From Nemertoderma westbladi (lineage: Eukaryota > Animalia > Xenacoelomorpha), in contig JAUCBJ010007477.1 of assembly GCA_032718475.1 (NCBI GenBank), positions 76,933 through 140,932 of the forward strand: a stretch of DNA of 64,000 nt, read 5' to 3'. The notes below the pieces were generated by a model. The model did no database searches and was not told the DNA's origin. It was given only the letters and a program-made list of their open reading frames with translations. The translations under genes and the position numbers were made by a program. How positions within the stretch are numbered: the first letter of the stretch is position 1; every line of letters starts with the position of its first letter. Shown here one piece after another: positions 3,846 to 63,178 of this stretch.

Positions 3846-3847
3846 AC

Positions 3848-4342
3848 TCAAAATATCCCGGGTCTTGCCATACACACAACATTTCGTGTGTAAAAAACGC
3901 AAAATGTTATGATATTAGAACTAGTTTTACCCCGACGATAAAACTGCACAAGAATATTATTAAATAACTCCGGCTCATATTTCACCTCCACATTATAATA
4001 ATTATCTAAAAAATGAAACCCAACCGTTTTCATTAATTTGCTATAGTCTATGTCTAGATTGTTAATAATATAAGTTTGGCTATTGATTGAAATAAAAGTT
4101 AGTTTATAATCAGTATGCTTATATATATACTTAATAATTTTTTTTATTTTAGGTGATTTACCGAGTACAGTGACCTTACCGCTCGGGAAAAAGAGACACG
4201 TCCATCCGCAAATTTTGGCGATATATTGAAAAGGCTTTAAGATGAGTTTTCCATTTCGAATTCGTTTAGCCAGCACATCGAATGATATGCACCCATCACC
4301 CAACCTCAAACTTATATTACTGTTGACAACGCTAAAAGACAT
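3848..4342 (-). pseudogene. TATA-binding-protein-like gene with premature stop
   Basis: FFPSGKVTVLG and YEPELFN motifs; CGA>TGA change relative to the intact copy at 62609-63169. Confidence 0.7.
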
Positions 4343-5780
4343 CGCAATCCGCTATTCTATAATGGGCGGCAGGCATATAAAGCTTAGGAGCGGGCGCTTT
4401 ACGATCCAAATGTGTTTTATAATGGCCGTAAGGTAGACTTTCATTAGTCGATGTGTAGTACCTTTTATCTTCCCACAGTGTTAGCGATTTTTTTCTTTGT
4501 GAAACGGTGTATATTTTATGTAAATTAGATTGAAACCTTTGACTGTATTCGTAATGCTCGCTAACCTCGTTATATACTTTTAAATATGATTCGTGGGAGA
4601 GTTTCTTTTTTATAACCATTTTTCCTACGCCTTTAGCGGCACGTTTTGGAACTGACCCCCCGCGAAAGCTATAACATTTTGGTCTAAGTAAAATAACCTG
4701 GTCAAACGGGATAGACTTCCCTTCATCCTTTAAATATCTATATTTCCCTTTCTGTTCTACTGTATACAACGGATGTGTAATAGGATAATTTGAACAGTCT
4801 AAAACTTTTTTTGATTGTAACGCAGATAAAAATTGGTGTTGGGATAAACCAACACACTGTAAAAAAAAAGAATCCGTGTCCCCACCTAACAAATTTATAC
4901 TACAATTTAATTCGGCTTCCATGGGCTTTAACTTATCGTAGAAAAAAGTGTAGTAATCTAACTTTGACAAGTCCAACACAGCTTGGCCTAAAAAAATAGG
5001 TTTATGCAAACAAACCGCAGTCTTAGATAGGACGTGACCTGATAATGAATCAGTGAACATAATTAAATTTTCGTGATTCGGCTTGGATAATAATAAGTCA
5101 CATTTCTCGATTGAATTACATAAGCGAAATGAGACACGGTCCCGTATATTCTCCATGCTTTTCCCGAAAAGCGCGCAATTTTTCTTTGCTGAGTGTTATA
5201 TTCAATAAAATCCTTAAAAATGTAACCTTGCTTAAATCTAATAAGTTTATGAACTTTAATCAAGCGCATACCATGATGAATATAAAAGCGCAATAATTTT
5301 AGATGCACACCGTACTCATACTTATCAAATTGGGTTAACATCAATTTTTTTGCTGGGCTATTGAAAATTTTATCGCCATTATAATGTCGCCAAAGACTAA
5401 TGCCTAATGTGTGGGCTGAGATACCTACTATCGAGTTTAATATGCTCCGGTGCAAATGGAAGCTCAGCTGTGGCATCATGAATAGTCATTGGGTATTCAA
5501 GGTCTACAATTGCGAAGTATCCATATATATCGTCAATTTCCAGACTCATGATATCGACACTATCAACATCCAACCATTCAAAGTCAGAATAAGGAAGTTT
5601 CTCTGACAAAGAACCGCTATATAAACTGTTGAAATCTAAATTATATAAATGAGCTTCAGGTTTATTAGGGTCGTATGTTTCTGTGCCTGGTATATTCGCA
5701 TTTGCCACATGAAGGTTGGTGTAAGAAACTCCACCCCTAATGGAATTTTCGAATGTTAAATACATTTCATGGTCTGCAAG

Positions 5781-9337: not shown

Positions 9338-12247
9338 TGCAAGTAGACGAATATGTGACTTGGAAAATCTCATACCCGCGTCCCAACTAACCCCCGCCAT
9401 CGTGTAATAGTTCGACACCTCAAGCGAATAATGTTTAGTACAATATGCACGAAAATTTTCAAAAATATCGGCTAGCAGCAACACGTCAAGATGTAAGTAA
9501 GCTTCCAAATAATCAAAAAGTGTCTTACATTGAAATTGCTCCCACGAAAGATGTGCAAATGTATATTCTTCAGGGCTAATAGATGATAATGTTAATTCAC
9601 TGCAAAACTCTTTTGGATGCGGTAATTTAGTATCCCCCAATTTACTTAAGGAATCGACATATTCGTAAGGAAAAACTGACTTATGGCGTAAAATTTCGTC
9701 GGTAACATTTGGATATAATTTTCTCATTTGCTTCACGGTGTGTGGAATAATGGTTGTTAAATCTGACACATCTTTTGTCAAAAACCCAGCCAAAGCAGAA
9801 AGGGAAAATCCCATAAACGCGAATGAATCAATAAACTGTATAGTTATTGATTTGCTGGTTGGGAGCCCTCTTACGTCCTTTTCTGGAATAGCATAACCAA
9901 GCACGCTAAGTGCTTCTGACGTTGGAATATCGATGCGGAGTGAGATATATCTTTCAGTATTTTTTGCAATGGTTTCAATGTTCCAATTTTTATATTTACT
10001 ACCAGCAAACCCTTTTTGTAAAATTAAATGTGAATCATAAAAAAAAAAAATTATGACAGACAACTGGGAATAGGTGACATTTAACGCTTAATTGTTTATT
10101 ACAGGAAATACACGCCGCACCAATGAAAGCCCCGTTGTAATGGTTGTGATGCATCACACTTGGATTTATATCTTTCCGAAAAAATGATTTACAATTAAAG
10201 CAATTTGTGGTACGCATATAAGCTTGGTATTGTGTGTGATCCAGGTGTTTGGGGTGGTGTGTGTTAAAGGTAGACCATTCATAACACTTAAATAAATCAA
10301 AAACCAGACTATCGATAAAATTCTGTACCGAGTTATTATCGATATTTTGTCTAAATGTAGACAAAAAATAATTTGGGGGGTTAATTAATTCACCGTTGGA
10401 GACAATCAAATATGAAACAGCCGACGGGAGATGTTCGGCTATATAATATTTTTTTACATTATTTGTTGGGGCTAGTACCACTTCGAAATCCATATATACT
10501 ATGAAAGGTGTGCTCACAGACTTATAGTAATTAGTAAAGCGTAAATTCAGTTTAGATGGCATCTCCTCTATTTGGCGCCCGTCTTGCCAACACCCTAATC
10601 TATGGCGTTCTAACGCATTTGGACTGTAGAAACCGCGAATACACCACTCACAACGATGACAATGATACTCGCTATTGCCTTCCCCACGACCATTAAATAA
10701 TCTATTTAAGTTAGAAACCCCGACGATGTGATTTGTTGAGGTTAAATTTTGACGTTCAATAAGCAATAAATTTAGCAATCTTTTGCCTTCAGCTTTTTTA
10801 GCGCTTGGTTGCCGTAGAAAGGAAATTTTTTCACTACTTCTATCAAAATACAATAAATTTATTAAATAATTTGGATTATTTTTTTCAAACTTTAGAATAT
10901 TTAGTTTCCATGATAGGGTAGAGTCTAATTCGCTTAAATTAAAAAACCCTAAATACTGATTATAAGAACTTTGGCGTGAAACATGGCGCAGTGTGTGATC
11001 ATCCGATATATGTTTTGAAAATTTTGCTGTCAGGACCGCCCACTTAAAACATTCACCTTCATTACACGGTACATTTATTATACAATGTTTATTTTTTAAT
11101 TTTGTTGGGATTGATTGGTTGGCATCACCGCTATGTCCGAAACGATATACCGATCGCAAGTATGACGCAATAGTAAGTTTGATGCGCGATAGAGTTACAA
11201 GTTTCCAGCCGCTACCCCGCCTAATAAATTGCGATATTTTTTCACCGATATGGGAAATGACTGTGTAGTACCATTCGTCAGAATCCGAGCTATTTTCAAT
11301 ATAATTATCTGTACCGATCGAAGTAAAATGGAATTCTTCTTGTAGAGTATAATTAGCATCATCGCGTTCCATTATCACCGAAGCAATTAACCACACTTTA
11401 TAAAACATATCAATAAAAGCCGATGCCGCCGTGTTAAAAGCGCGTGAAGCATATAACCCCATATAATTTAAATAATTCGGCACATCTGGATACATCTCAT
11501 TAGATGACACATTATGGGTATATTCCTGAACGCGTGATTCGTGGCATGTTTTTGATAGATGAAAACCTTCGTTCGGTGTATCTGAGCTGTTTGTAATGCT
11601 TACAGGCGAACCAACGTTGAGATCCGGTTGAAATGTCGGTTCTGATTGTTTTTGGTTATGTTTGCGTTTGCGGGAATTGTAATGGTTTTGATGGCAACTA
11701 TGTTCGATATATGAATCGAAGTTTTCAAAATCATCAGAGCATGTCGGGCAGGATAGCGTGTAACCGCAGTAGGTGTAATTCGGACGAGACAACCCGCAAC
11801 ATCTATTACTGTGAAATATTGCTATTCTTTCGAGTACAGTAGTTCGGCAATTACAATTATCGCAAACATACCCATCGAAATGTGTGCGTAAATGCCGTAA
11901 ATAATTTTTCTTAAGTATAGTACAACCGCAAAAAACGCAATTAATCTCCATCATTATAATTATTATTATTACGATTATAATATATTTATTAACGTAGGTA
12001 CAGAAAACATATTTACAATATGCCGATGAAAGAGATGCGGCAGATTTTATGTAGATAAATATATCCAATACCCAGTCAACCAGCCACCCACGCTAGAAAC
12101 CGTTTAACCAACCAAAATTTACTGAACTGACATTATCCTATTTATATGCTCTATTAACTATGTTGTATAATCGCGTGTAAGAGTATTGAAATAGTATTGA
12201 CATGTGTCACCACCCGAGTTTGGTGTTATGCGTTTAATGTCACATAT

Positions 12248-12880
12248 TTAATATGCGCGGTAAAATGCCGAATTAATCTCTTCCCCATACGGCGTTAAAT
12301 TCGTCGGTAAAACCCCAAAATAATCATCCGAATAAATATTAGAAACGTAGAGTATTGCCGCATTACATTGTTGGCATATAAGCTGGCATATTTTATCGCC
12401 CGATGTTACAACGTATTCCTTAGATGTGTTGTTAATCAATATAATTACAAGTTGATCTATATTACCGCGCGCGACGCTGGAATCGACCGCACATTCTGCA
12501 ACATCAATGCCAATTTTTGCCAAGCTAAAAGTCGGTGTAATTCTTCCAAAATAATTGGCGGGTAAATATATTTTAACACCCGTCTCAATTAACATTCGTG
12601 AGTGCGGCTCTATTGTTCTATTCACGGCGCTATATATGTCAATCCCAGCTGGACTATATGAACCGCATACAGGCGCCCGAGCTGCTGGGCTTAACAATTC
12701 AATTTTAATTGGAATAATTGAATTAGGACCGCGGTAACTATTTTCAGCTTGTATTATTGGAAACATTTTTTCATTACGACGTATTTTACCTAAAAAAATA
12801 CCAAAAAGAAAGGTAACAATGAAAAATATATTTGAAAAAATAATCTTATCTATAGACTCAAGCTGCCCTAGTATTGCCAT
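12248..12880 (-). CDS. dUTPase-derived protein, probably catalytically inactive, with N-terminal hydrophobic helix
   Basis: AGIDI (motif I) and GDKICQL (motif IV) are kept. RSG is replaced by TFS, motif III is degenerate and Gly-rich motif V is absent. TM-like segment IIFSNIFFIVTFLFGIFLG. Confidence 0.75.
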   Translation of the reverse strand: MAILGQLESIDKIIFSNIFFIVTFLFGIFLGKIRRNEKMFPIIQAENSYRGPNSIIPIKIELLSPAARAPVCGSYSPAGIDIYSAVNRTIEPHSRMLIETGVKIYLPANYFGRITPTFSLAKIGIDVAECAVDSSVARGNIDQLVIILINNTSKEYVVTSGDKICQLICQQCNAAILYVSNIYSDDYFGVLPTNLTPYGEEINSAFYRAY

Positions 12881-13480
12881 GTCGCTTAATCAATAATATT
12901 TTGACCAATGGGTATATTTATAATGGGTGTGTCTTTAAAATGTCGTTCGCGCGCCGCAATCGTTCGTTTTTAGTAAAAATGATTACAGAAAAATATCTAT
13001 CGGGAGAGAAAAGTTTGCGATGCCAACATTAAATTAAATTCGCTCATGCTTAAAATTATGAAACTTCTAAGAAGCTACACAGTTAATACAGTTGACGTCA
13101 ATCAATTTAACCGTGAGTAATATTCTGCGGAATTTCTGGGGTGTGTCTTATAAAAATTTATATAGACCGCATTAATCGCCACCGCAAGCTGTTACCACTT
13201 ACGTCAACCAATTTAAGCGTAAATAAATATTTCCCTCGAAATTTGTAGGAAGTTTTTCAAAAAAATTCTCTCAGGACAATAGCGATTAATCCGGTTGAAT
13301 GGTTAAAATATACCCGTTTTCCCGATAGCCCATCATTATATTATAAATACGTCGTAAATATACTTTATTTCGTCATTCGGGTTAATTCATTCATTATCAT
13401 ATTTTTCGCACATTGTATAGCGTGATATTATTGTATTTTTATTTTTACACTTAATTATTAATATTTCGCAAAATTTGTTG

Positions 13481-14797
13481 ATGGAATCTGTGAAACCATC
13501 ACAACCAAAAATGATGTCATTAAGCGGTAGCTCTACTGATAGCGCGCCCGCCCCATACGTATCGGTGATTACAGGTAAGAGTGTGTGGGGCCTCGAGTGT
13601 TTGGGGGAAGGAATAGAAATAAAAGCATTTAACGGGAAATACGTTCGATTCAACCGTTGGGGTGATACCAAAGGACGCAACATCGTGCAAGAATCGGTAA
13701 GTCTTACTTACCAGAACATAAGATTCCTGTTTGACTTCCTCAATTATAATAAAATAGCCGTTGAATATTACAAGGAATACACATACAATACACAATACAG
13801 GAATACACAATACAATTTGCTTATAACACCGATAAATCATGCGTACTTACGCATTGGGAAAAACGGCGCATCAATTTTTATCTCGCGAAAAATTCTAGAT
13901 GTCTTACAAAGCATCTACGGCAAAGTCGTTCTTTCCCGTATTGAACCAAAAAAGAAGGAAATTCATGATGAGAATTTTATGGAGTTCGAAGATTGTGGGT
14001 ACATTGGATATATCTACGACTTTGAAGGGCAACGATTTGTCGGCGTTTGGGAAGCGGATGATATAGGTAGACAGCGGAAGGGTGTTCTATATTACGATGG
14101 GTTGAATCTCAGAGCGGATGAATTCTGTTTGCTCGACTTTAACATAGATAAGAATGTTAACGAGAATATCGATGAGGTTAGTATGAGGTACACATCAACC
14201 GTTAACAAAAACGGGATATATTTGTCCCACAACTTCGACACCAAGGTTATTTTCATCCCTCGAAACAACACAAATGTCAAGATAATTAAGCAATTACAGA
14301 AGTACGCGGACCACGATATTCCGTCTGGGTGTGAGTTTCTACCGATTAAAAAGTTAGTTGTTGAGGCTGCGATTGATGAATTAGTGGACGAGGAACTAAT
14401 GAAAGTGGTAATGCCGAACAACGCTAGTCAGCTGAAGACGTCCGAAGCAGTAAAAGTCGCTGCTAAGAAAATGGATGAGAAAAAAATCTGGTTGCCTGCG
14501 ATTGCAGAAAATGAACGGGTAGACGGCGCTGAAAAAAAGAATGATTATAAGGATATTGATACCCTCGTTGGGGGTGTGAGCGCTCAGATGAAGATGAAAA
14601 CACCTAAAGCCATGAAAGAACAAGCGCTTAAGCGAAAAATTGATCTCATCGTGAATAAAACACCTAGCTATGAGTATGAAGATATCAGCGACTTCGAAGA
14701 GGACATCGTCAATGATACGGATGATGGTGAAGACATTTTCAATGAAATCGAGACTAATGGGCAACCTCAAATAAAGAAGAATAAACATTCAGTGTGA
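13481..14797 (+). CDS. Polinton accessory protein with two putative PC4-like ssDNA-binding repeats and an acidic/NLS tail
   Basis: IKAFNGKYVRF..SVSL and YDFEGQRFVGV..GLNL..EF resemble PC4 VRDFKGK..IDIR..GISL..QW. Long intact ORF; several copies in the window. Confidence 0.5.
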   Translation: MESVKPSQPKMMSLSGSSTDSAPAPYVSVITGKSVWGLECLGEGIEIKAFNGKYVRFNRWGDTKGRNIVQESVSLTYQNIRFLFDFLNYNKIAVEYYKEYTYNTQYRNTQYNLLITPINHAYLRIGKNGASIFISRKILDVLQSIYGKVVLSRIEPKKKEIHDENFMEFEDCGYIGYIYDFEGQRFVGVWEADDIGRQRKGVLYYDGLNLRADEFCLLDFNIDKNVNENIDEVSMRYTSTVNKNGIYLSHNFDTKVIFIPRNNTNVKIIKQLQKYADHDIPSGCEFLPIKKLVVEAAIDELVDEELMKVVMPNNASQLKTSEAVKVAAKKMDEKKIWLPAIAENERVDGAEKKNDYKDIDTLVGGVSAQMKMKTPKAMKEQALKRKIDLIVNKTPSYEYEDISDFEEDIVNDTDDGEDIFNEIETNGQPQIKKNKHSV

Positions 14798-21513: not shown

Positions 21514-23880
21514 GATTTTCGAGTTTAAGATCTGGCATATGGTGGCGCAGTATTTTCTGATTACAGTTGTACGAATTAACTCAGGCTTTTGGCAGCCAGC
21601 TGCTTCAGAATATTTATTTAATACGTCGTGACCTCTGATAGGCTGTAACCCATCCGACTTAAATACACGTTCGTGGGGACTTCGCGCAGCACGAGGCCTA
21701 GTTATTATATACAAATTAAAATGCAGCGACTGTATCACAAAATCAGGTTTTGAGAAATTTACCCACACCACCAATCAATCAAAGAAAGGTGGACAGTACG
21801 TGTTCACCCCTTTTAATCTCCCCCCCCCCCCCCCCACCCTTCCCAACCACCAATACATAACCGCGACATCTACCACCCACGGAAGGGTAGCACGAACTTA
21901 TTTCCAATCGCACGTTAAATATGCAAAGCCAGGTGGTTTATAGGAATATAATAAACGCAGTACTCGTTTTCATTATAAGCCTCTTTGCGTTCGTCCTGTT
22001 TTGTATTTAAATATATTTCTTAAACGCAAGCTAGGACAATCTTTATAATAATAATAACTAGGGATGCGATCAATATGTGAAGCCAGGTGGTTTATATAAT
22101 AATTTAGTCAACGCAGTACTCGTCTTCATTATATGCCTCGTTGCGCTCGTCGCTTGTCCTGTTTTGTCATAAAATATTTTTCCTAAACGCAGACTGACGA
22201 TCTTTATACAGTTATAACTATGCGAAGTTTCGAAACTGTGCGAGTAACTGTTGATACATCTATGTGGAGATGTGTGATATGTGGAGATGTGTGATACAAC
22301 GCCAACGCATCTTATGCCGATGTAGTAATATGGGTATTGAAATAATATTAAATCAATGTACACTCTTAAAGCTGCAGCGAAAAAATGTAGCTAATTTCCT
22401 AGGTTACATATAAAATAATAATATTATTTTTAAGAACATTAATTTTACTACTTTGCAAAAATTCAATTAAAAAATAACCAGACATATACATTGTGGAATA
22501 AACTATTTCAGAAGCCTACAACAGCCATGCCATGGATTGTATTTATGTTATTATATCTGTCATTTAACTGAGATAGCAATAGTAGTAATAGTCGAACGGT
22601 TATGCGGCCCGTCCAGCCTATAATAAACACAATTCAGTGATTGGGCTGGAATAGCAATACTGGTTGCCTCTATTACAATTCCTCTCAGGTTAGTCTACAG
22701 CCACAACTCCCAGCAGCTAGCTCCACACCAGCAGAGACTTGACCAATAATGGGAAGGATTAAATTTGTACTCAATAATTGTGCGGTTTAATTACGTTTAG
22801 ATCAATTAAAGACACATTTATTAAAGCAAATCACTTAAACTAATTAAAAACTATAATAGAATGGCGTATGGGGATTATATCTGTATAATTTTTAAGTATA
22901 ATTATTTAAATCTTATACTGTAAAACAATTAATTTCCTTTAAAAGGCAGGTTGAAAATGGCGTTTTCACCGCAATCAACTTAATTAACTAATTAACTGCT
23001 ATTATCTTAGCTTCTCGAAGGCCACACGGAAATTCTACTTGGAAAATTTCTAAACTTTTGCCAAACAACATGTGTACCAAGTTTGGATAGATTTCATCAA
23101 AGATTGGCCGAGTTATTAACGTTTAAAATTGAACACGACAGAACGACAGAACGACAGAACGACAGAACGACAGGTTGATTAATGGTACCACTACGCTAAG
23201 GCTCACTCACTTCGTGGCTCGCCCCACAAAGTCATTATTATCCAGACCCTTACAAAGAAAGAGCAACAGAGGCCTTACTTCTGGTGTAACCAACACGGGA
23301 ACTGGATTACGCTTTCCAATGGTAGTAAGAAGTCCCATACGCTTTGTTAGCTCCATCTCTAAGGGATTTAAACATTTCTTAACCTCTTCTGAAGTATGGG
23401 CTGTAACATCCCGGTTTAGACCATTTAAAACAGTGCCATATCTCATGGAACTCGGTTCCCTTGACCTCTTCTTATTAAATAATAAAAGTTGTACAAGTAC
23501 ACATTCCTTGACATCCCGAATGTTGCAATTTCCTGGTATGATTTGTGTATGATGTTTGATGAGTGTATCAATATATGATCTTAGTGCTATTATGTCTTTA
23601 GTTAGTGGTATCTCATTAATTTTATTGAATTTAGCCTTCTCTAGCGCATACTTAGCAATTCTTGATACAACAAAAGTCCATTCAGAGCCATGTAGATGAA
23701 GAAACGAGTCTATTTTCCTTTGTAGGTCGATATCATCATCTCTAACAACCTGATTGCGAATAAATTCTGCAAACTTCCTCAAAGACTGGCCAAATTTGAT
23801 CTTAGCAGAAGAACTTTAAACTTATTAGCAGCACAAAGCACCTTGTCAAAGTTTTTAGGGTTAATCAAGGCTACTGTCGT
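21514..23880 (-). pseudogene. Crypton-like tyrosine recombinase remnant split by ~1.5 kb of repeats
   Basis: LLFNKKRSRE, GKRNPVPVLVTP (23207-23782) and RGHDVL..GCQKPELIRTTVIRKYCATICQILN (21520-21670) match animal Crypton-type YR motifs. Confidence 0.65.
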
Positions 23881-27156: not shown

Positions 27157-27500
27157 AATCAGATAGGGACGCGCGATGAATAAATTGTACTACAGCAAAC
27201 GAAATATACAATACAATATACAATACATTTGTATTATTTTTGCCATACAATAGGTAAAGGTAGAATTAAATAAAAAGACACAATCGAGACCCAAAACATA
27301 AATTACCCTCACACAAAAATAAAGTGGCCCCAGTTTGACTAATCCCTTTGAATCCATAGCTTCGTTATTACATCAATTCATCCAAGAAATTAGAATAATC
27401 ATCTACTCTTGCAATAGTTTGTATTCTTTTGCGTTATACTTATGAAGCAGTCCACGCGCATATTAACTCAAAGACAAACCCCTACCCAAACACCATGTGA

Positions 27501-27800
27501 TCAATCCCACACCTCTTCTCCCCACGCCATTGAACATTCTCCCTTCTTCTCTTCTTTCTCTTCTTTTTTCTCTTCTTTTTTCTGTTCTTTTATTATATGA
27601 AAAATTGAGTTCCTGGACCTATATTCGCAAAACCGCAAATGGTGATCCTTTTCAGCTTCTCTAAAGCTGTGTGCGGCTTGAAAAGGACACTGAACCATTT
27701 TTTGATTCGAAAAGTTCTTACGACATTTTCTTAAATGCGTAACATATTTTTCTGAATGAATTCTGTGCGTGGCATCATAAGGACATATGAAATATTCCAT
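27501..27800 (-). CDS. GTSF1: GTSF1/Asterix-like tandem CHHC (U11-48K-type) zinc-finger protein
   Basis: CPYDATH-x9-H-LRK-C and CPFQAAH-x9-H-LRF-C are both exact C-x5-H-x9-H-x3-C. The RKN linker is as in GTSF1. Ends WGEEVWD; intronless. Confidence 0.88.
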   Translation of the reverse strand: MEYFICPYDATHRIHSEKYVTHLRKCRKNFSNQKMVQCPFQAAHSFREAEKDHHLRFCEYRSRNSIFHIIKEQKKEEKKEEKEEKKGECSMAWGEEVWD

Positions 27801-28106
27801 AGTAACAAAAGACAAAAAACAAAATTTATTGAGATATACTTTTTAAAAAACTTTTAAAAACCTCACTTAATATTTTTAGAGATAATGATCTAACTTTACA
27901 TGGTTTTATTTATATAGAAAGGTCCACCTTAACATTTCAAACAGAACCATAGTTTTTGGTATGGCATGCGTGAAGGATTAAGCATCCCATGGAATCCCTT
28001 GTTGAGTTATACTCTACAATGAAATATAAAGACGCAATCGAGGCCCAAAACATAAATTACCCTCACACGAAAATAAAGTGGCCCCAGTTTGGCCCCGAGT
28101 CATCCC

Positions 28107-28358
28107 TCAATAATCTATGGCTGGTTGGGCTCTTATTAACCGTAGCATGACTAACCCAAACATCAATGCGTGAATGGGGCCTGCGTGAATGGGGCCTGCC
28201 ACAGAGCTTAAATTATTCAAACCCACAGCTTCGTTATTACACCAATTCATCCAAGAAATTAGAATAAACATCTGCTCTTGCAATAGATTGCATTCTTTCG
28301 CATTGTATTGCGAAGCAGTCCACGCATGCATTAGCTCAACAACAAAGGCAATATCCAA
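28107..28358 (-). CDS. Small hypothetical accessory protein; degraded paralog at ~27275-27490
   Basis: 83 aa ATG ORF whose sequence and 3' flank are duplicated on the other side of the GTSF1-like gene. Confidence 0.4.
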   Translation of the reverse strand: MDIAFVVELMHAWTASQYNAKECNLLQEQMFILISWMNWCNNEAVGLNNLSSVAGPIHAGPIHALMFGLVMLRLIRAQPAIDY

Positions 28359-28990
28359 ACGCCATATGTCAAATTAATTCCCAACCATCTCTTTACTACA
28401 GTGGATACTGCAGTTTTTTGTTTGAAGTAATTTCAGAGATGCTCTAGTATAACATTAATTAACATACCCATTCATTCATTACACACACTTTTCTCCAACG
28501 CACCCCCCGCTTCTCAATTCATCCCATTTCCCAACCTAACTAATGTTTTACATTTAATTAACCCAATGAAATGTGTTTATTATTCCCTCAATCCAATAGC
28601 GCGTCTCTCTCTCTCTCTCTTTTTATTTCTATTGGTTCCCACAAGCTTCACTTTTATTTTCATTGGTTATCCTTTCCCTTATAAACCCCCACCCTTCGCT
28701 TCGAACTTTACTTACAAAAATATTATTGACAATTTTACTTTTTATTTAAAGTTATAATACATTTATTGTTATACATAATATTATATTTTCTTCAAGATTG
28801 TTATACGTAATACATTTATTGTTATACATAATATATTGTTGCAAACATCATCAATCTGCAGGTAAGAACAATAAATTTGTGTTTTTATGAATTCGTTTAG
28901 TTTTAACATTATTACCTCAAAATAAATATCAACCCCGCGAAACCTGCCCAAACTTATTATTATTATTTAGTTTTTTATTTTATAGCAAAC

Positions 28991-34573: not shown

Positions 34574-34804
34574 TATTATTATGAGTATTTATTATAACGT
34601 ATAATAATAATTCTTTACTACATACGTATATGTGTAATCAACAAATAATATATGTACCACATAATAATACAATATAATTAATAAATATATATACATTAAT
34701 TTGATGACAACCATTTCCCATAACCAACTGCGAGTTTCATAGAACAGTAATTAAAACAAGAATCTTTATCAGAATGGTAGGCACAATTTGTTATTGCCGA
34801 ATAA

Positions 34805-35235
34805 TGTATGTTTCTGTGCCAGGTATATTGGCATTTGCCATATGAAGGTTGGTGTAAGAAACTCCGCCCCTAATGGAATTTTCGAATGTTAAATACATTT
34901 CATGGTCTGCAAGTAGACGAATATGTGACTTGGAAAATCTCAAAGCCGCGTCCCAACTAACCCTCGCCATCGTGTAATAGTTCGAAACCTCAAGCGAATA
35001 ATGTTTAGTACAATAAGCATGAAAATTTTCAAAAATATCGGCTAGCAGCAACACGGCAAGATGTAAGTAAGCTTCCAAATAATCAAAAAGTGTCTCACAT
35101 TCAAATTGTTCCCACGAAAGATGAGCAAATGTATATTCTTCAGGGCTAATAGATGATAATGTTAATTCGCTGTAAAACTCTTTTGGAAGCGGTAATTTAG
35201 TATGGCCCAATTTACTTAAGGAATCGACATATTCG
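34805..35235 (-). pseudogene. pPolB internal fragment
   Basis: Matches 5680-5780 plus 9344-9665 without the foldback insertion; cut at 35236 by another terminus. Confidence 0.85.
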
Positions 35236-36760
35236 AGTAGTATGGGTATAGCCTTCTTTGGCCCATTGTCTGCCATAGCCCATCATTGATGTCAATCATT
35301 GAATGCCTGCGTGTGTATGCCATAGCCCATCATTGATGTCAATCATCTAATGCCTGCGTATTGACGACTATTACCTACCAATAGGAACGCAGGAATAATC
35401 ACAGTTTAACCAATAGGAATGTAGGAATGTAGGAATGTGATGGCGGCAATATCCTACATTCCATTCCCGGTCATTGACCTCAACAGATTTAGCGCTTCCT
35501 TACTCGAATGCTTGCATGTGTCTGCCATACTTTATATCATAGATATCAATCATTGAATGCCTGCGTATTGACAACTATTATCAACCAATAGGAATGCTTA
35601 CAGTTAAAGAATGTAGGAATAAATCACAGTTTAACCAATAGGAATGTAGGAATATGATAGCAGTAAAATCCTACATTGAACAGTTTAATCAATTAGTAAG
35701 TCGTAGGACTTGATTACTGTAAGAATTGTTGACTGATTGATTGATTGACTGGCTGGCTGGCTGGCTGATCTACAGCTAAAACTACTCTAACGATTTTGTA
35801 GGAATGTTTGTAGATCTCTCATTCTATCCCCAATTATTACCCTCAATTGATTTACTGATTCTTCTCAATAGTGGGCTATGGCAGACACTGTAATTGATAT
35901 GTTATTGACTTTTAATTAACTTGTAATTGATATGTTATTGACATTTTAATTAACTTATCTTTTCTGCTAGGTGAGTAGTACAGAACCTCGAGTATAATAT
36001 AATATAATTTATTGAGTAATAAATTAATTCTAATTATTTTTTCGCTGAGGGGAGGATTTCGTACAGCACAAGTGCTACGTAACTGTAATAGAATAACAAT
36101 AACCCTGTTGATTAGAGCCAGTCTTTTATTACATAATAATATAATAATAATAATACAGAACTAACAACTACTATTTGTTTTACAGTTAAACAGTTTTACA
36201 GAATCACCATCCACCAATATTTAATGCCAAATCAAATTGTCTATATGTTGTTGTAGATGGATGATGCAGTGGTTCCTTCTCGATGATGGAGTTGTTATCT
36301 TAACCTATATAATTCAACAAAGTTTAAAGTTTTACTTTGTGTCTCTGATGAAGTCTATTTTATTAAATTATTTATATTTATACAGTATTTATATATTAAA
36401 AACGGATATGGAGAGGGAGTGTGTTATTGAAACAGTTGTCAATTATTGTTTTACTTACCTTCTGTATATGTAATTATACTGAGTATTGTAAAACTAAAGA
36501 TGTCATACTTAACTTAAATAGCCCTAGTTAGAAGGTTTACAAATGACAGTTAAAGTGTGTAAGGGCAAACTGAAATGGATCTCTGTTTCTACAACTAGTT
36601 TACTAGCATCGCCTTCACTCATACATTTTTGGGAAACACTCATACATTTTTGGGAAAGACGGTTTTCTTATATCTAACAGAGATTAGTATAATGTACTCT
36701 CTAATATAGGCTCTCGTGCCGCGCGAAGGCCCCACGAATGTGTTTTATTTACCGTGTTAA

Positions 36761-37134
36761 TCAGTCCCACGCTTCTTCTGGCCATTCCATTCTTTTTTCG
36801 TCTTTCTTTTCCTCTTCTTTCATTGCACCTTTTTCATAAATTGATTTACCATTTCTGTATTGACAGTATCTCAAATGATGCTCTTGTTCCGCTTCAGCAA
36901 AGAAGTGTGAGTCAATATTTGGACATTGAATAATTTTCTGATATGGCTGATTTTTTCGACATTTTCTTATATGTCTGACGAATCTGTCCCCATGGATCAG
37001 CTCTCGATCAACCTTATCAAGCCGGCACAGCATTCTTAAAAATGCAGCTGCAATGCAGCATGCCGATCCTAGTAGTAGTCCCCATGGATCCTATGGCAAG
37101 GGTCATATGGACAGACGATGTATTCGTTATCCAT
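36761..37134 (-). pseudogene. GTSF1: Second GTSF1/Asterix-like gene, interrupted by a short RTE insertion
   Basis: Removing the insert and one TSD copy gives MDNEYIVCPYDPCHRIHGDRFVRHIRKCRKN..CPNIDSHFFAEAEQEHHLRYC..WPEEAWD. Confidence 0.85.
36999..37077 (+). mobile_element. 5'-truncated RTE retroposon with 13-bp TSD
   Basis: Matches ~203-260 including the TAGTAGTA tail; GTCCCCATGGATC at 36986-36998 and 37078-37090. Confidence 0.85.
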
Positions 37135-37565
37135 TATATTATTATTATTAAAATGTTAACTAATTAATTAATAAAATTAGACTGTAAAAATTAGACTAAA
37201 ATTTCTAATACTGTAAATGTATCGATAAGTTGTTAACAGCAAAACTAAAAGGAACTAATATTTTAATATACCTTTTTTGTATAAATTAATTATGCACACA
37301 TCTGACGGTTGTATTCATTATAACCATAATTAACCATGAATAGTTCGTTCACCACCCCAATATAGAAGATGGCACATTTTTCCCAAGTTAATTGCGGAAA
37401 CACGCGTGAGGAGCGATGGTTGATATAGCTCGAGTAGATCTGATGCTTTAAGTTATAACTAATTAGTCACACACACACATGTTATATGTAATTTTTGTTA
37501 AGATTTACACTGCTCGGTTGAATGAATTTATATTAACTAGCGGTGGGGCATGACTCATATATTGA

Positions 37566-39062
37566 TTGTGGGACGGTTGTAAGTATTTGGCTACCATTAT
37601 GTACATTTTGGCTAGCAAACTTGACAATAATACGACTGACAATGCATTATTGAAAGACATCTGTATCCGTAATGCTATTGTAAATGTATCGCCACACCTG
37701 ATTACTTTCCCCTCCGATGACAATTTTTTTTATTTCCATGTATATGGGTGTATATTTAACGACTCAAAAAGGAGTTACGGATACATTTTAGAATTAGTGC
37801 TGGACCCACTTAGCAATAAATATATTGTATTCATGGATGACCTTTGTCGAGCTATCACGGATACAGATATTCTAGAAAGCAATGAAGATTGCGACCTCAT
37901 AATGCTTGGGTTAGAAGTCCATTCGAATGCTCAGCTGAAAAAACTGACAACATTAAATTGCGAGAAAACGAGCATTGTTTTAAGCCAGTATGAACCCGGA
38001 TACGACACGGTCCAAATAACTCTGGAACGTACCCCTTAGAACAGTTGGGCCGCTGGCAGTCTCTACGGCCATTTTAGATTGTGGGAAATATTGACCACGG
38101 GTTTGGGCTATACTACAGATGGACGGAATATATGTGGCACGGAAACAATTCCGATGTGGGCTGGGAATGCACGGGACTTCGATGGGCAATTACCTCTAAC
38201 AGGCTCGGATTGCATGGATAAAATAAAAGAATGGAGTTTAGAGGCCATTAGAGATCGTGTTTCAAATAATATCTATGTTTTGGGTTTAAGCACCATAGAC
38301 CGCATTATAAACAATATTACCATGGTTGAATGGATATATCTTTTTACAGAACATAGCAGAACACAGTAGAACACAGCAGAACACAATAGAATACAGGCGG
38401 AACATAGGCGAACACAGCTGTAATTAAAATCTACACCAAAAAATAACACACTTTGGAAAGTACCGGATTTAATCATACAACTGTAAGATGTCAATTACAT
38501 ATTTAAATTAAATGGCGGTTTTCCATATCCTCCAAAATAAATTACTTCTCATTATCCTGTAACCATGGAGAGTTGGTTAGTTCTACAGCAGTACAGTACC
38601 GGTAGCTGAGTAGGCCTACATCAGTACATTGGTAATATACTCTACACTGTGCCCGGTAATTGCCGGTAAATGCCTACATCTGTCTGTCTGTACAATGTAC
38701 AGTCTGTCAGTCTGTACATGTCTCTACAGCACTAGGCCTACTGCAGTACTGGAACAGGCTGACAGGCAGACAGCTGGACTAGTAACAGGTACAGGCCTAA
38801 CCGAACAGCTGATCGGGCAACTCTGATCAGGTAATTTATTTTGGAGGATATGGAAAACCGCCATTTAATTTAAATATGTAATTGACATCTTACAGTTGTA
38901 TGATTAAGTCCGGTACTTTCCCAAGTGTGTTATTTTTTGGTGTAGATTTTAATTACAGCTGTGTTCGCCTATGTTCCGCCTGTATTCTATTGTGTTCTGC
39001 TGTGTTCTACTGTGTTCTGCTGTGTTCTGTAAAAAGAACTATCCTGGTTGAATTGGATTAAT
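37566..39062 (+). pseudogene. Unknown accessory gene (~260 aa) with one in-frame stop and a MITE near its 3' end
   Basis: ORFs 37566-38039 and 38079-38369 share a frame; removing the MITE restores ..TMVELD*. Confidence 0.45.
38332..39044. mobile_element. Mutator/MULE-like MITE
   Basis: ~210 bp TIRs starting GGATA; 9-bp TSD TGGTTGAAT at 38323-38331 and 39045-39053. Confidence 0.85.
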
Positions 39063-39400
39063 ATCTTTGGCCTCTGGTGAAGGTGTTTTTATTTGTGCTT
39101 TATGTTAGAATTAGATTAATATCTTTGGCCTTTGGTGAATGTGGTTTTTTTTTTTTTATTTGTACTTCATGTTTATTTATAAATATTTACTTTCAACAAC
39201 TAATATAGTATAATATCCATATAAATATCATTATAAATATTTCACCAATACACCAATAACTACAACAACAACAACAACGACAAGTTATATATGTAATTGT
39301 AATATAATTGTTAAATATATATTCCCGACCTAAAATAAATTATTTTATTAATAACAGTCCATAAACCCATTTCAATAATAATAAATCATTATAATTTAGA

Positions 39401-40405
39401 TTATTGGAAGTGATTTTCACCGAAGTTGGGTCTATAAGGGTAGCCATGTACCACCTTCAAATCAACATTCAATTCCCCATAGTTTAAGTTGAAATGATTG
39501 AAATTTAGCGGATTGCTACCCAATTCTCCATTAAAGCTGGCATTAGTGAGCATGCCCAACAGAATATATTTCGGTAACCTCCCTTGAATTATACTTGAGT
39601 GAGTATAACTTGACTGCCCACCCGCTATTGTGAAGGTCTTCACATCTCGCTTCAATAAGTTATATATAAAGTCATTTTTCTGTGAACCTACAAGATGCGC
39701 TCGTGCCACTTCGTTATCGATTTTATGGCGTTTTATCTTTAGATTGATGGCCATTATTTCTACTATCGCATTTGTTAATCCGGCAGGAGGCTCAACCTTC
39801 AGGAAAAAATTATTCGACACGCGGTCCATACGAATTCGAGCAGAAATTCCAGGTGGCAGAAGTTTATCCTGAGCAGCCAAATCCATAAAGAGTGGCACAA
39901 TGACGAATTTGATAAAGAGTGGCGCAATGACGAATTTGATATAATTCCCACGGATGTTGTTGTCAGTGCCAACAGGGACACCACCCTGGTTATTCTCATT
40001 ATTCTCATAGCCACCAGCCCTCAAGATGACACTTTTTTCATTTGCATCTGTCAGTAGCAATGTTTGAAATATAGACTTATAAGCATAGAACCCATTCGAG
40101 GTTTCGACAAGTTTTTCGTTTAAATATAAAGAGCAATTTTCAAAGAGTGTGCCACCAGGATAATTGAGATGGTGGAGGATAGTATTGTCATTAGCTCTAT
40201 CACCGTCCCAGGTAATTTTATATTTGATGTGGAATTTGGAATTTTTCAAATCTGTATAAAGAATGTTTGATTCGGGTACAAAAAATTCGATTTGGCACGC
40301 ATTTGCGTCGAGAGTAGAAATCGGGTAAATGTCCAACCAGTGTGAAGATGTGTATTCTCTTTGATTAGCTTTACTCAAAAATAAAGATAATTCTCTTTTG
40401 CTCAT
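39401..40405 (-). pseudogene. Major capsid protein of a divergent Polinton subfamily, 3' truncated
   Basis: Homologous to but clearly diverged from 54332-55582; lacks the last ~90 aa. Confidence 0.85.
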
Positions 40406-40428
40406 AGTTTCAGTTTTATTTTCATTTA

Positions 40429-40781
40429 TTATGCAAATACATCATTGCAATGATTATTTCGCTTTTTACGCCTAACATTCATACCCACAGTTGGGTGTCG
40501 CCGTTTGCCCCCCTTCTTTTTTTTAGTTGCTGGCTTGTTGAATTCGTCGTATACGCGCTGGGCAATTCTACGCGTCTTAGGCCTCATACGGCCCGCCGCT
40601 TTATTCAACAAATCATCCGCTTTGCGACGCAAGAAACGTTTACCTTCGGGAATTATATATTTTCGTGCTGCTTTTGCCACTTTTGGAAGTGCTTTAGTTA
40701 GTACTTTACGTCCTAACTTACGGGCTAATAATCCAAGCCCAGTTGTAAGCATTCCTTTTCCCCGCTGTTTATTGGCTCGCC
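40429..40781 (-). pseudogene. Basic core protein-like gene, 5' end cut by a Polinton terminus
   Basis: QRGKGMLTTGLG...; homology stops at the AGTAGT at 40782. Confidence 0.7.
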
Positions 40782-41330
40782 AGTAGTATGATAAACAACT
40801 TAAATAAAACAGCGTCTGCCATAGTCTACCATGTTAAAGAATTTCCCGAATGGCTCTTGCCCCGCCTACTTACTATGATTACCATTGTGTCACCCCACCC
40901 ACTTACTATGGTTACCATTGTGCATATGTAACATATGTCACCACTGTGTATATGTGACATATGTGGTATAAGGCCAGTCCGCAGACGGAAGTAATTTAAT
41001 TAATTTGTTTCTACCAGTTGGTGTTTGACCTTGAACCGCAATAGGTAAAACCCAATATAGTAAATGTGTTGCAGACGTTTGTTATATATTCTTTAACATG
41101 ATTTCGTGATTTGATGAAAAAATGGGGCGAGCCATGAAGCCTTAGCATATGGGTTAAAGTTATAGTATTTATAATATTATTTTAATTTGATTATTCTACC
41201 TATGGGGCGAGCCATGAAGTGAGTGATAGCATCGAAGTAAGGAAGGTTATTGTATTTATAATATCATTATTTTAATTTGATCATTTACTTAAATCCGTCA
41301 CCGCTTTATTTAAAGATTTCTCCCACCACC

Positions 41331-57053: not shown

Positions 57054-57857
57054 TCAATCAATTCGTATAAAATGAAGCGTCAATATTGAATTTCCATAAT
57101 GAAAGCGCAACAAATTTCCGGAATCTCCAATCAATCGAACTCGTATATAACGTAAATTAGATGTTGAATTAACTTTTTTATAGTAGACTTCCTCAACTTC
57201 ACGACTAATAATTTGCCCATATTCCCCTTCTATGGGTATGCTACGCAACAGAGGGTATTCGCTATTGTCTACAAATTGAGGTTCGACGCAATTGATATGT
57301 ATATTTATGTTGGGTTCCAGTATTTCGACAGCATTAGGATGCTTATGGCAGTCGTACTTATTATTCCACGAATCAATCCTTAGCAAGTGATAATCCCCCG
57401 CAGCATTTTGCACACACATAAAACCTTTGCCATCAACCTCGTGTTCTGTTAATCCTAGGTAACCACCCAAACGTTTACTGACAAATATCGACAACTGTTT
57501 ACCTTTAAAATGTATGGTTATATTACCAGAGCGTGCTGTATTATCAATTATATTAATTTGGCCTTTAATAAGGCTTTTGTTGAAGTACTCAATGATCCTT
57601 TCCAATGATAGGAAAGATCCTTCGGGGAGAGTAACATCTCTTGTAAACATTTTTTTATTTTTTATGGCCTTTATATAAATGTCGCTATTGTCATACCTGA
57701 TACTAGATACGTACGTTATACCGGTTAAACCTATTAACCATTGCCCTTTAGCGAAAGGTAAAGGAATTTGCAAATTTGTTTGGAAATCGCCGGCGCTATT
57801 ACGCGGGAATTCTATGGGGTTTGCGTTTGAGGGTAGTACAACGTAATAACTGTTCAT
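57054..57857 (-). CDS. Minor capsid protein 1 (penton/PX-like)
   Basis: YVVLPSNA..N.A.DF.T.L..W.IGL..I; C-terminal PLLR.I..YY...I.V.L..F..LTLHF. Confidence 0.85.
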   Translation of the reverse strand: MNSYYVVLPSNANPIEFPRNSAGDFQTNLQIPLPFAKGQWLIGLTGITYVSSIRYDNSDIYIKAIKNKKMFTRDVTLPEGSFLSLERIIEYFNKSLIKGQINIIDNTARSGNITIHFKGKQLSIFVSKRLGGYLGLTEHEVDGKGFMCVQNAAGDYHLLRIDSWNNKYDCHKHPNAVEILEPNINIHINCVEPQFVDNSEYPLLRSIPIEGEYGQIISREVEEVYYKKVNSTSNLRYIRVRLIGDSGNLLRFHYGNSILTLHFIRID

Positions 57858-58738
57858 TCTTGTAGTTTTTGTCGCCGTTGTTGTTTTTTGAGTTCTAGAA
57901 CTAAAATTGTTTTACCTCCATGAAAGACTATATGCTTTCCTTTATGGTCGCGAAGCGTTATACTAATTGTGTCGAGCACTTTTTTATTTCTTAATTGTTT
58001 GTAATGTGTGTTTTTGAATTCCAGGTTGATGAATGAGTATGGTTCCCATTTCAAAGGGATTATCCGCAAAAGAGGCGCCATCGAATGTCCTACGTGAGAA
58101 GATTCAATCATATCTGTATATATAAACATTGTGTGTCTATCCCTCGTTATATCGCAAGGTTCGGGGAATTCAACTCCATCCGCTTTGTTTGTATCTTTAC
58201 AGCCTAAGTTCAATAAACCATCATCTTTGTTATAGTGTATTGCCCAAAGCGCCCCAAGACCCATTAAATTATTTTTTAAACTCGATAACCCGAAAATATT
58301 TATTATATCTCCATAGAATTGGAAATAGCGGCCTTTCTCACAATGTAGACGAATTTTTGATGTATGTTTTTGGTAGTTAAACTTAACATCTTTGAAACCG
58401 TGGTGGGATATTGCGGGATTTTTCAAATAAACACTAATATGGTTTAAAATTGACTCAATAGAAGCATATAGACCAAGATTAAAATCGATTTCTATAAGAT
58501 TGTATGGAGCTATATGAAATTCCAAATCCTCATCAACCATATATTCACCAATTCTAATTCGAGATCTTTGTTCAATATTTCTATAGGTCGACACATACTG
58601 TATTTCCTTTAGACCCACGACCCAATCTGCGCTGACGGGGATAGGTTTGGACAACTCAATCGTGAAATCGCTGGGAGTGTTATCAGGATATTTATCTAGA
58701 CTGGCGTTGGAAGTCAACGTTAAATGTAAGTAATCCAT
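57854..58738 (-). CDS. Minor capsid protein 2 (penton/PX-like)
   Basis: LTLTSNAS..YPDNT.SDF..W.VGL.EI; FIYTD.IE.S.VG..APLLR. Confidence 0.85.
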   Translation of the reverse strand: MDYLHLTLTSNASLDKYPDNTPSDFTIELSKPIPVSADWVVGLKEIQYVSTYRNIEQRSRIRIGEYMVDEDLEFHIAPYNLIEIDFNLGLYASIESILNHISVYLKNPAISHHGFKDVKFNYQKHTSKIRLHCEKGRYFQFYGDIINIFGLSSLKNNLMGLGALWAIHYNKDDGLLNLGCKDTNKADGVEFPEPCDITRDRHTMFIYTDMIESSHVGHSMAPLLRIIPLKWEPYSFINLEFKNTHYKQLRNKKVLDTISITLRDHKGKHIVFHGGKTILVLELKKQQRRQKLQE

Positions 58739-58752
58739 AATAATATAATTAA

Positions 58753-59838
58753 TTATTGTACGTGATCAACCCACCGATGTGCCGCAAAACCAACAAATTT
58801 AACCAAATATTGCTTTTTGCCGCTTTTATTTACTTTTTCTTTAATTATTTTTTCAATTGGTAGGAATTGAAATGGTTCTATTACCTTTTGGATTTCATGC
58901 CGATAAAATGTCCCCTTTATAACGCGCCCATTCGAGTCCGCAACTTCGTACATAGGGTACGGCTCTCGATCCAATCTTATTCTGTAAATTTTGAAAATTT
59001 CTACAGTATAATTAGGTGTATAACCTTTGTCAAATGGCTTTCTAGCTAAACTCAGCCGCACCTTATCACCAACCTTGAAATGAACTCGACGCTGCGCACG
59101 GCGTTTTCTTTTATTGGGATGACCCACACTCCCATATAGTTTTAAAAATAGGTCAGTTTCATTCTTTTTATTGACAGAGTTTGGCGCCATACCAATGGTT
59201 CTATGTATTGAATTATTATATGCAACCAATATTTTTGGCAATATACCCATCCATTCTCTATTCTGTTTCCTCGTGAAAATTCTGTACATGCGAGATTTGA
59301 GGGTGCGATTCAGCCTTTCACAGATACTAGCTTTAAATTGGCTAACTAAAGTATAAAAATGAACATTATTGTTCAGTAAGAAATCTTTCACCAATTTATT
59401 AACAAACTCAGTTCCTTGATCAACCGCTAGCCGTTTAGGTTTTCTATCTTCAAATATCGCGGCTAGGGCCCTTTTAATTTCGACCCCTGTTTTACGTTTT
59501 AGACCCAACGCCCACGCCTTCCGACTAAAACAGTCAATACAAGTAAGTATGTAACCGTAGCCATTATTCTCACCCCTAAAAGGTTGCATATCGCACAAAT
59601 CCGCTTGGTATAGATCACCAATACCGCTCGTGAAGATTTTTGATGTCGGGTAATGGCGCCTAGCCGGCGCGTGTAGGGAATACGTTCGTTGGGAGCTCAA
59701 CCATTCTTTTGCGCGATTTCTCGTAACTTTAGCGGCTTTCGCTAGTTTGGTTACGCTCGCGAAACCGGCAGCATTTGAAACATCGTAATATATTCTTCCC
59801 AGTCGTTTGTTTGTTCGATTTTCTACGATTCTCCCCAT
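58753..59838 (-). CDS. RVE (DDE) integrase with C-terminal chromodomain-like region
   Basis: QADLCDM, AVDQGTEF and ICERLNRTLK triad; IEKII..QYLVKF.G..W. Confidence 0.95.
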   Translation of the reverse strand: MGRIVENRTNKRLGRIYYDVSNAAGFASVTKLAKAAKVTRNRAKEWLSSQRTYSLHAPARRHYPTSKIFTSGIGDLYQADLCDMQPFRGENNGYGYILTCIDCFSRKAWALGLKRKTGVEIKRALAAIFEDRKPKRLAVDQGTEFVNKLVKDFLLNNNVHFYTLVSQFKASICERLNRTLKSRMYRIFTRKQNREWMGILPKILVAYNNSIHRTIGMAPNSVNKKNETDLFLKLYGSVGHPNKRKRRAQRRVHFKVGDKVRLSLARKPFDKGYTPNYTVEIFKIYRIRLDREPYPMYEVADSNGRVIKGTFYRHEIQKVIEPFQFLPIEKIIKEKVNKSGKKQYLVKFVGFAAHRWVDHVQ

Positions 59839-61899: not shown

Positions 61900-62620
61900 A
61901 GAACACAAATCCACGTTTAAAAAACCAAACGAGATCCCACAGGACAAACCTACAAAATTTCGAAATTATTCAAAAATGAAACTTTTAATTTTTCGAAAAA
62001 TTTTATGAAATTTCTAATTAAATATTACTACCCAAATTACTAATAAAATTCAAACTTTTTTAAGTTTTAACAGACTGACTGACTGACAGACCGACAGACA
62101 GACAGACTAGATTTATGTAAATGTAAAAACTGACATCAGAAATGAAATCAGCACCCCCTAAAACCCAAGACCATGAATAAAACACATTATATATATATAT
62201 ATCAAGGGAACAATGATAATATCCGCATTTAAAAACCAAACGAGATCCTAAAGGGCAAACTTTCAAAATTTTTAAATTTTTCAAAAACGAACATTTTAAT
62301 TTTTCGAAAATTTTTTATGAAATTTCTAATTAAATATTACTACCCAAATTACTAATAAAATTCAAACTTTTTTAAGTTTTGACAGACTGGCTGACTGACA
62401 GAAAGACTGACAAACCGAAGACAGACAGACTAGATTTATGTAAATTTAAAACTGACATCAGAAATGAAATCAGCACCCTTGACAACCTAAGACTACCGAT
62501 AAAACACGTTATATATATAATGTGAATAATGGTAATATCCACGTTTATTTAAAAACCTAACGAGATCCCACCGGACAAACCTAAAACTGACACCAAAAAA
62601 TGAAAAAATTAAATATTTCT
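61900..62620. repeat. Tandem ~330 bp intergenic repeat with (GACA)n
   Basis: Same array as 2400-3130. Confidence 0.78.
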
Positions 62621-63169
62621 ACCTAAATGACTATCTAAATTACCGATAAAATTCAAAAACTTTGGAAAAAATACTCGAAATATCTCGGGTCTTGCCATAC
62701 ACACAACATTTCGTGTGTAAAAAACGCAAAATGTTATGATATTAGAACTAGTTTTACCCCGACGATAAAACTGCACAAGAATATTATTAAATATCTCCGG
62801 CTCATATTTCACCTCCACATTATAATAATTATCTAAAAAATGAAACCCAACCGTTTTCATTAATTTGCTATAGTCTATGTCTAGATTGTTAATAATATAA
62901 GTTTGGCTATTGATTGAAATAAAAGTTAGTTTATAATCAGTATGCTTATATATATACTTAATAATTTTTTTTATTTTAGGTGATTTACCGAGTACAGTGA
63001 CCTTACCGCTCGGGAAAAAGAGACACGTCCATCCGCAAATTTTGGCGATATATTGGTAAGGCTTTAAGATGAGTTTTCCATTTCGAATTCGTTTAGCCAG
63101 CACATCGAATGATATGCACCCATCACCCAACCTCAAACTTATATTACTGTTGACAATACTAAAAGACAT
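62609..63169 (-). CDS. TATA-binding-protein-like protein, intact
   Basis: ~186 aa with two repeats: IVN..., FFPSGKVTVLGKS (TBP IFSSGKMVCTGAKS), YEPEIFN (YEPELFP), VFYTRNVVC. Confidence 0.72.
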   Translation of the reverse strand: MSFSIVNSNISLRLGDGCISFDVLAKRIRNGKLILKPYQYIAKICGWTCLFFPSGKVTVLGKSPKIKKIIKYIYKHTDYKLTFISINSQTYIINNLDIDYSKLMKTVGFHFLDNYYNVEVKYEPEIFNNILVQFYRRGKTSSNIITFCVFYTRNVVCMARPEIFRVFFPKFLNFIGNLDSHLGRNI

Positions 63170-63178
63170 CACAATCCG

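Follow-up and report, generated by a model that had tools for sequence, protein, structure and literature searches.

The question raised by this locus is whether Polintons carry a GTSF1-like gene as selected cargo in more than one family and, if they do, what such a gene would do for the elements. We addressed it in a stretch of 64,000 nucleotides of Nemertoderma westbladi DNA, called here the window, in which the original prediction had placed a second, divergent GTSF1-like gene (gene 2) inside a different type of Polinton terminus.

Organization of the window

The window is a nest of Polinton pieces, one inserted in another, with ORFs matching pPolB, integrase and dUTPase and, more weakly, packaging ATPase and protease (Pfam). 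The AGTAGT-type ends fall into type 1 (17610, 19381, 40782 and 52073) and type 2 (26381, 47603 and a variant at 48416), to which the end at 35236 is added. Polinton-in-Polinton insertion was seen three times, type 2 in a type-1 end (26381), type 3 in a type-1 pPolB (35236) and type 1 in a type-3 core-like gene (40782); this triple nesting points to a cluster or to target preference. The main features are as follows.

27501..27800, minus strand: gene 1, GTSF1-like, intact (99 aa), lying in the interval from the type-2 end at 26381 to the start of a pPolB at 28991
34908..35235, minus strand: fragment of a type-1 pPolB, ending at 35235 where the type-3 element cuts it; 95% identity to 9338-9665
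35236..35720, plus strand: type-3 Polinton end (AGTAGT) with sub-terminal repeats, identified by recurrence in X1/X3 and relatedness to type 1
36761..36998, minus strand: gene 2, downstream piece, from the second half of finger 1 through finger 2 and the charged linker to the W-x4-W end and the stop
36999..37077, plus strand: 79-nt insert, a putative retroelement 3' tail ending in (TAG)n, with 13-bp duplications at 36986-36998 and 37078-37090
37078..37134, minus strand: gene 2, upstream piece, running from the start codon through the first half of finger 1; its Pfam zf-U11-48K match is weak and stays below the cut-off (E 0.079)
37599..38322, plus strand: second type-3 cargo ORF, with an in-frame stop at 38037-38039 in the window copy; a MITE interrupts it near its end
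38323..39044, no strand assigned: MITE with 214-nt inverted arms and a 9-bp duplication; X1, X2 and X3 each have contigs joining across it
39333..39400, minus strand: protease 3'-end remnant that shares 75% identity with the ends of three protease-like ORFs of type 1
39401..40405, minus strand: type-3 major capsid protein, C-terminally truncated, identified by Atlas features and gene order
40429..40781, minus strand: basic core-protein-like ORF, cut at 40782 by a type-1 end

The type-3 segment (35236-40781) thus holds, in order, its end, gene 2 (minus strand), an ORF (plus strand), the MITE, the protease remnant, the truncated capsid gene and the basic core-like ORF, which we take to be PZ-like; the type-1 end cuts the element there, and its pPolB and other end lie outside the window. 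Among pPolB, integrase, packaging ATPase and protease, the protease remnant is the sole survivor in this segment. In the type-1 sister family DNA_pol_B_2 and rve were above the Pfam cut-off, with Pox_A32 and Peptidase_C5 weak.

An internal deletion fuses the protease remnant to the truncated capsid gene at 39400/39401. Atlas feature matches at 0.97 named the latter 'Major capsid protein' and placed it in double-jelly-roll clusters (recognition 2254, just under the threshold of 2300); Pfam and PDB sequence searches returned nothing for it, and a single-sequence fold failed (pLDDT 33). The stretch 39401-40441 was first read as pPolB, a reading now replaced by capsid. We also saw in the capsid gene a 27-nt tandem duplication near 39885 that is absent from X1 and X3 contigs. 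The second cargo ORF had no significant Pfam match, and its first piece had no PDB match; long contigs in X1, X2 and X3 cover it and differ from the window at the stop codon. The window copy of type 3 is decayed (insert, MITE, stop and deletion) and has many differences from all three runs.

Other ORFs of the window were recorded in passing. The type-1 accessory ORFs include a dUTPase (12248-12889, E 1.9e-16), weak TBP-like ORFs (3848-4351 and 62609-63178) and a 458-codon ORF lacking a significant Pfam match (13421-14797). Between the capsid block and the integrase lie tandem paralogous ORFs (57054-57911 and 57854-58765; 25% identical, E 1.5e-12), presumably a duplicated minor capsid gene. A 202-codon ORF at 23207-23815, outside the mapped Polinton pieces, had no Pfam match.

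The end at 35236

The sequence AGTAGTATGGG begins at 35236 as an AGTAGT-type end, and so has the (AGT)2 or (AG)3 terminal motif given for Polinton/Maverick elements in the available part of PMC8097293. A sub-terminal repeat follows, 35301-35460 recurring at 35506-35677 (73%). This end had been predicted to cut a pPolB. The match of 34908-35235 to 9338-9665 ends at 35235, which places the cut exactly at 35236; the matching stretch sits in an ORF with Pfam DNA_pol_B_2 and continues as pPolB beyond the junction point.

We compared 35150-35720 with public contigs of runs X1, X2 and X3, all from one species. X1 and X3, which belong to two studies, gave one contig each with a match starting exactly at 35236; the flanks before this point differ from each other and from that of the window, so that one end was seen behind three different flanks. 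No contig starting at 35236 was found for X2 among the matches listed. Contigs of X1, X2 and X3 depart from the window at 35234 and continue like an uninterrupted pPolB. The original prediction depended on 35236 being a recurrent element end elsewhere in the genome; the comparison was run, and recurrence was found.

The end had also been called a third terminus type. The first 60 nt from 35236 aligned to the four type-1 ends with scores of 43-57 (shuffles ~17 +/- 6; 0/300 reached the score in each case), while the scores against type-2 ends were reached by 51, 92 and 44 of 300 shuffles. Similarity to type-1 ends and its absence for type 2 make type 3 a distinct sister of type 1, the main family of the window; the type-3 and type-1 capsids are 80% identical in amino acids at pS 0.77 (silent sites largely changed). 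The claim is refined in that the end is a relative of the type-1 ends. A further AGTAGT-starting end joins the type-3 sub-terminal repeat at 35313 in X1 and X3 and probably represents another subfamily.

Contigs of the public runs were also compared with window positions 34800-41000 in depth bins. Contig depths in X1 were 127 for the sub-terminal region, 127 for the nearer gene-2 variant, 108-113 for the next ORF and 134 for the capsid; the flanking type-1 pPolB had 2785-5241. As depth is not copy number and no contig of the runs spans terminus, gene 2 and capsid together, the linkage of gene 2 with the capsid gene in other genomes of the species is something we infer from similar contig depth. 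Joints from 36333 to ~36744 in contigs, with short sides, may link the sub-terminal region to the gene-2 3' flank; these were not counted.

X2 and X3 represent one sample, yet Polinton bins are ~5-8x deeper in X3 (690 versus 84 for the type-3 ORF, 108430 versus 18019 for a type-1 end), with the retroelement bin alike (642k versus 546k). This gap could come from library bias, from tissue or individual differences, or from free Polinton DNA, depth not being equal to copy number.

Two GTSF1-like genes

Gene 1 is intronless and has two Pfam zf-U11-48K matches (E 1.9e-10) as well as a match to PDB 6x46 (E 3.6e-12). In its structure model the fingers have pLDDT 87-95 and the tail about 50, and the best fold matches are GTSF1. 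It adjoins the 5' end of the type-2 pPolB, which is 31-36% identical to type 1; this pPolB is broken and gene 1 is intact. The 3' flank of gene 1 is duplicated across the gene (27261-27504 and 28015-28372, 82-92%), possibly as a trace of a lost second copy.

Gene 2, likewise intronless, runs on the minus strand from an ATG at 37134 to a stop at 36763-36761. It faces the terminus at 35236, the stop being 1525 nt away, as expected for the predicted GTSF1-like gene 1.5 kb inside the end and pointing at it. An insertion had been held responsible for the missing N-terminal part, correctly: the break amounts to 92 bp (the 79-nt insert and a 13-bp duplication) and disrupts the frame. A 60-nt part of the insert matches window positions 202-261, the end of a very high-copy repeat, at 100% identity, and the insert bin is the deepest bin in all four runs. 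The insert is probably the tail of a high-copy retroelement, its class being judged from its shape. One X3 contig joins 36985 to 37078 with the insert absent; no insert-free contig was found at this break for X1 and X2 among the matches listed.

Taken alone, the downstream piece of gene 2 had no Pfam match; it matches solved GTSF1 chains (E 0.004) and has 66% nucleotide identity to gene 1 over 202 nt. The two pieces together were predicted to differ from gene 1 at many positions and still to keep the hallmarks of the family, and this could be read directly: all eight C/H ligands (8/8), KCRKN and the W-x-EE-x-WD end are present, and the short length is kept, with 93 codons outside the insert (from coordinates) versus 99. 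Two tandem CHHC fingers are therefore found in gene 1 (by Pfam and fold) and in gene 2 (by its eight ligands). A second gene-2 variant in X1, X2 and X3 differs at 16 positions over ~200 nt, and its charged linker has a 12-nt indel; the indel keeps the frame, which has one chance in three and hence is weak evidence.

Selection and relationship of the two genes

We aligned gene 1 with the two gene-2 pieces over 85 codons, with codons around the break excluded. There were 46/85 identical residues, and identity at codon positions 1, 2 and 3 was 67%, 74% and 46%. We obtained pN 0.27 and pS 0.90, with pN/pS 0.30 (bootstrap 0.20-0.45; 0/5000 reach 1); pS is saturated, so no dS value is given. For the capsid pair of types 3 and 1 pN/pS was 0.14. 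In simulations of random substitution all eight ligands were kept in 0/3000 pairs at each of five divergences. This alignment of the reconstructed coding sequences, which the original prediction had proposed, shows purifying selection on the path between genes 1 and 2, whichever branch carried it. Should the families have taken up different host paralogues, host branches could carry some of the selection.

A scan of 1.84 billion representatives gave 550 matches at E <= 0.001. Among the best 150 of these, which were analysed, identity is at most 48% and the median length is 207 aa; 8/10 of the top matches looked up carry animal names. In a word-based homology search, neither the 72 candidates for gene 1 nor the 3740 for the type-1 capsid (E limit 1e-20) yielded a match, and a profile search gave 14 matches, none with >40% identity. 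Gene 1, P0158, P0119 and the capsid had no relative in the IMG/VR scans; none was found in phage records or in a metagenome scan with both viral genes either, and the viral fold library gave no match under E 0.001. Short Trp-ended GTSF1-like proteins do occur in metagenome records, outside any known virus; 0/15 of their loci convincingly match the Polinton core proteins of the window, most contigs being short. At these 15 loci we observed only two 36-residue matches at E 0.01, and the neighbours are cellular genes. In four of the 15, probably representing two distinct genes, a gap of 1.6-1.9 kb separates the fingers; genes 1 and 2 have no introns. One ORF (L003:28-1257) combines GTSF1-like fingers with a double-stranded-RNA-binding domain.

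Genes 1 and 2 are each other's best match, at 96.7 bits versus <= 68.6 for 156 other proteins. In a quick tree (140 rows, 68 columns, no bootstrap; 12/150 matches lacking canonical finger spacing were dropped) they lie on one side of a branch with SH-aLRT 93 (tool mark 95) and a stem of 0.94. Host GTSF1 is not known to be among the rows; change in the host lineage may therefore account for the long stem, and the captures may be separate. DNA similarity of the two genes is confined to the coding region, with no common flanking DNA. Gene 1 lies at the pPolB end of its element and gene 2 at the capsid end of type 3; this difference speaks for movement between families, or for separate captures, over plain inheritance in place.

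Two separate captures of short host GTSF1 paralogues, with the selection mostly host history and the genes riding along, seem to us unlikely. Such captures would fit the positions at different element ends, the unshared flanks, the broken state of gene 2 in the window copy and a comparison set not known to include the host paralogues; in the accessible parts of two papers, several GTSF1 paralogues per animal genome are common (PMC9539491) and some host GTSF1 proteins are short (PMC13650160). Against this, one gene family would have to be captured twice independently, each copy landing 1.1-1.5 kb from an end in outward orientation; beside its broken pPolB, gene 1 has stayed intact, and the diverged gene-2 variant has its frame-keeping indel, a weak point. 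One capture followed by transfer between families is likely, and that both genes are selected element cargo we hold with good confidence. Long-term selection as cargo in more than one family, as originally proposed, is upheld in part: the end recurs, gene 2 shares its segment with a capsid gene at similar contig depth, pN/pS is low and the genes pair; some of the selection may belong to host branches.

Predicted action on the PIWI pathway

In mouse GTSF1, according to the available text of PMC9385479, R26/R29/K36/K39 are needed for RNA binding and W98/W107/W112 for PIWI binding; GTSF1 speeds PIWI slicing via these basic residues and tryptophans, and C-terminal regions decide which PIWI a GTSF1 paralogue activates. 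GTSF1 and Maelstrom join Piwi on target RNA (PMC13269885, as far as the text is available). At the four basic sites the residues of both viral proteins are H, K or R, K and K; this state, 3/4 basic, is the commonest one, seen in 95/138 matches (among the best 150 of 550). Both have a W-x4-W spaced like mouse W107/W112, in a region that aligns poorly and has a model pLDDT of about 50; such a motif in the tail was found in 2/138 matches (among the best 150 of 550). Both end no more than two residues past the first acidic W[DE], as do 4/101 matches having it, while 94/101 have >20 residues behind that Trp, a region missing in both viral proteins.

Our leading reading, held tentatively and built on sequence comparison, is that two Polinton families carry shortened intronless GTSF1-like genes, likely from one capture; the encoded protein is predicted to bind PIWI and would most likely act as a competitor of host GTSF1, weakening piRNA silencing. 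A Polinton would have captured GTSF1 through an mRNA, and from this single origin the gene would have moved between families. Finger 1 of the viral protein may bind RNA and the terminal W-x4-W may bind host PIWI; competition with host GTSF1 would then weaken piRNA silencing of the element. Zinc fingers kept while silent sites changed almost fully suggest that the elements likely use the protein against germline defence. In the fuller form of this reading, about which we are a shade more hesitant, GTSF1 was trimmed to its fingers and a PIWI hook and passed between distant families, and acts as a dominant-negative piRNA suppressor, that is, a counter-defence. The inhibitory effect is the least supported step; the case for it is that nothing remains behind the last Trp and that the element would benefit.

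With its RNA- and PIWI-binding parts apparently kept, and 3/4 basic residues being the commonest state, the protein could instead be a working PIWI activator that boosts slicing, by which the element would limit its own copy number or suppress rival elements. Both fingers, the usual 3/4 basic residues and a Trp pair are kept, binding of RNA and of PIWI is required of mouse GTSF1 (PMC9385479), and the window itself shows Polintons nested within Polintons. We nevertheless regard an activator as improbable: the region behind the Trp pair that most matches possess is gone from both proteins, C-terminal regions set the PIWI choice of a paralogue (same source), and the benefit to the element would be harder to argue.

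It is more doubtful still that the cargo acts outside piRNA silencing, by binding tRNA or structured RNA for viral expression or through a non-PIWI partner. CHHC fingers are also found in U11-48K and TRM13 (PMC9385479), and the partner bound by nematode GTSF-1 is an RNA-dependent RNA polymerase rather than PIWI (PMC13650160); however, the terminal Trp pair is kept in both viral proteins despite saturated silent sites, whereas these residues are absent from the nematode proteins no longer tied to PIWI (PMC13650160). An artefact, with 35236 no element end or with a host gene between unrelated repeats, is hardly credible: host repeats do lie between the end and gene 2, and no single contig crosses the segment, but the end recurs, the pPolB cut is exact and depth is similar from end to capsid.

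Relation to known systems and significance

The viral proteins resemble GTSF1/Asterix (PDB 6x46, the GTSF1 chain of 9nhb/9nhc, PMC9385479 and PMC9539491) in their two tandem CHHC fingers with all ligands, their KCRKN, the basic face of finger 1 and, judged by spacing, the Trp pair behind the fingers. They differ in having 93-99 aa, ending at the last Trp-Asp (the median of the matches being 207 aa) and being <= 48% identical to any of the best 150 matches; their genes are intronless, lie inside mobile elements and are known from sequence alone. The elements resemble Polintons/Mavericks (adintoviruses; PMC8097293 and PMC8502044, accessible text) in the (AGT)2 end, capsid and protease remnant, in the integrase, ATPase and pPolB of the type-1 sister family, and in having cargo between the end and the core genes. 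The accessory genes named in the accessible text of these two papers differ in being membrane-active. The main texts of both are free of 'gametocyte', and that of PMC8502044 also of 'CHHC', 'piwi' and 'silencing', supplements being outside this scope. Host-type genes are carried as cargo by nematode Mavericks too (PMC11512509, accessible part); there, a fusogen and horizontal spread of cargo are described, whereas in our case the cargo belongs, as a cofactor, to the pathway by which its carrier is silenced.

We found no report of GTSF1 cargo in Polintons/Mavericks in literature covered by title and start of abstract, with supplements and most subscription journals outside the scope. Accessory cargo itself is already known; what appears to be new is Polinton accessory cargo that is a piRNA-pathway cofactor.

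Anti-silencing proteins encoded by elements, and viral decoys, include plant VANC, viral RNAi suppressors and poxvirus K3L. The proposed logic is the same, an element protein acting against host silencing, often as a shortened host mimic; we set our case beside these by logic, not by sequence. To our knowledge, none of them is a captured piRNA-pathway cofactor, and it is, as far as we know, an open question whether transposons of animals encode proteins that counter the piRNA pathway. Here a GTSF1-like cofactor lies inside two Polinton families, under selection, and one of its natural copies is intact and open to PIWI assays. If the protein is an inhibitor, it would be a direct counter-defence against piRNA silencing; if it is an activator, the element would be tuning its own silencing or that of its rivals.
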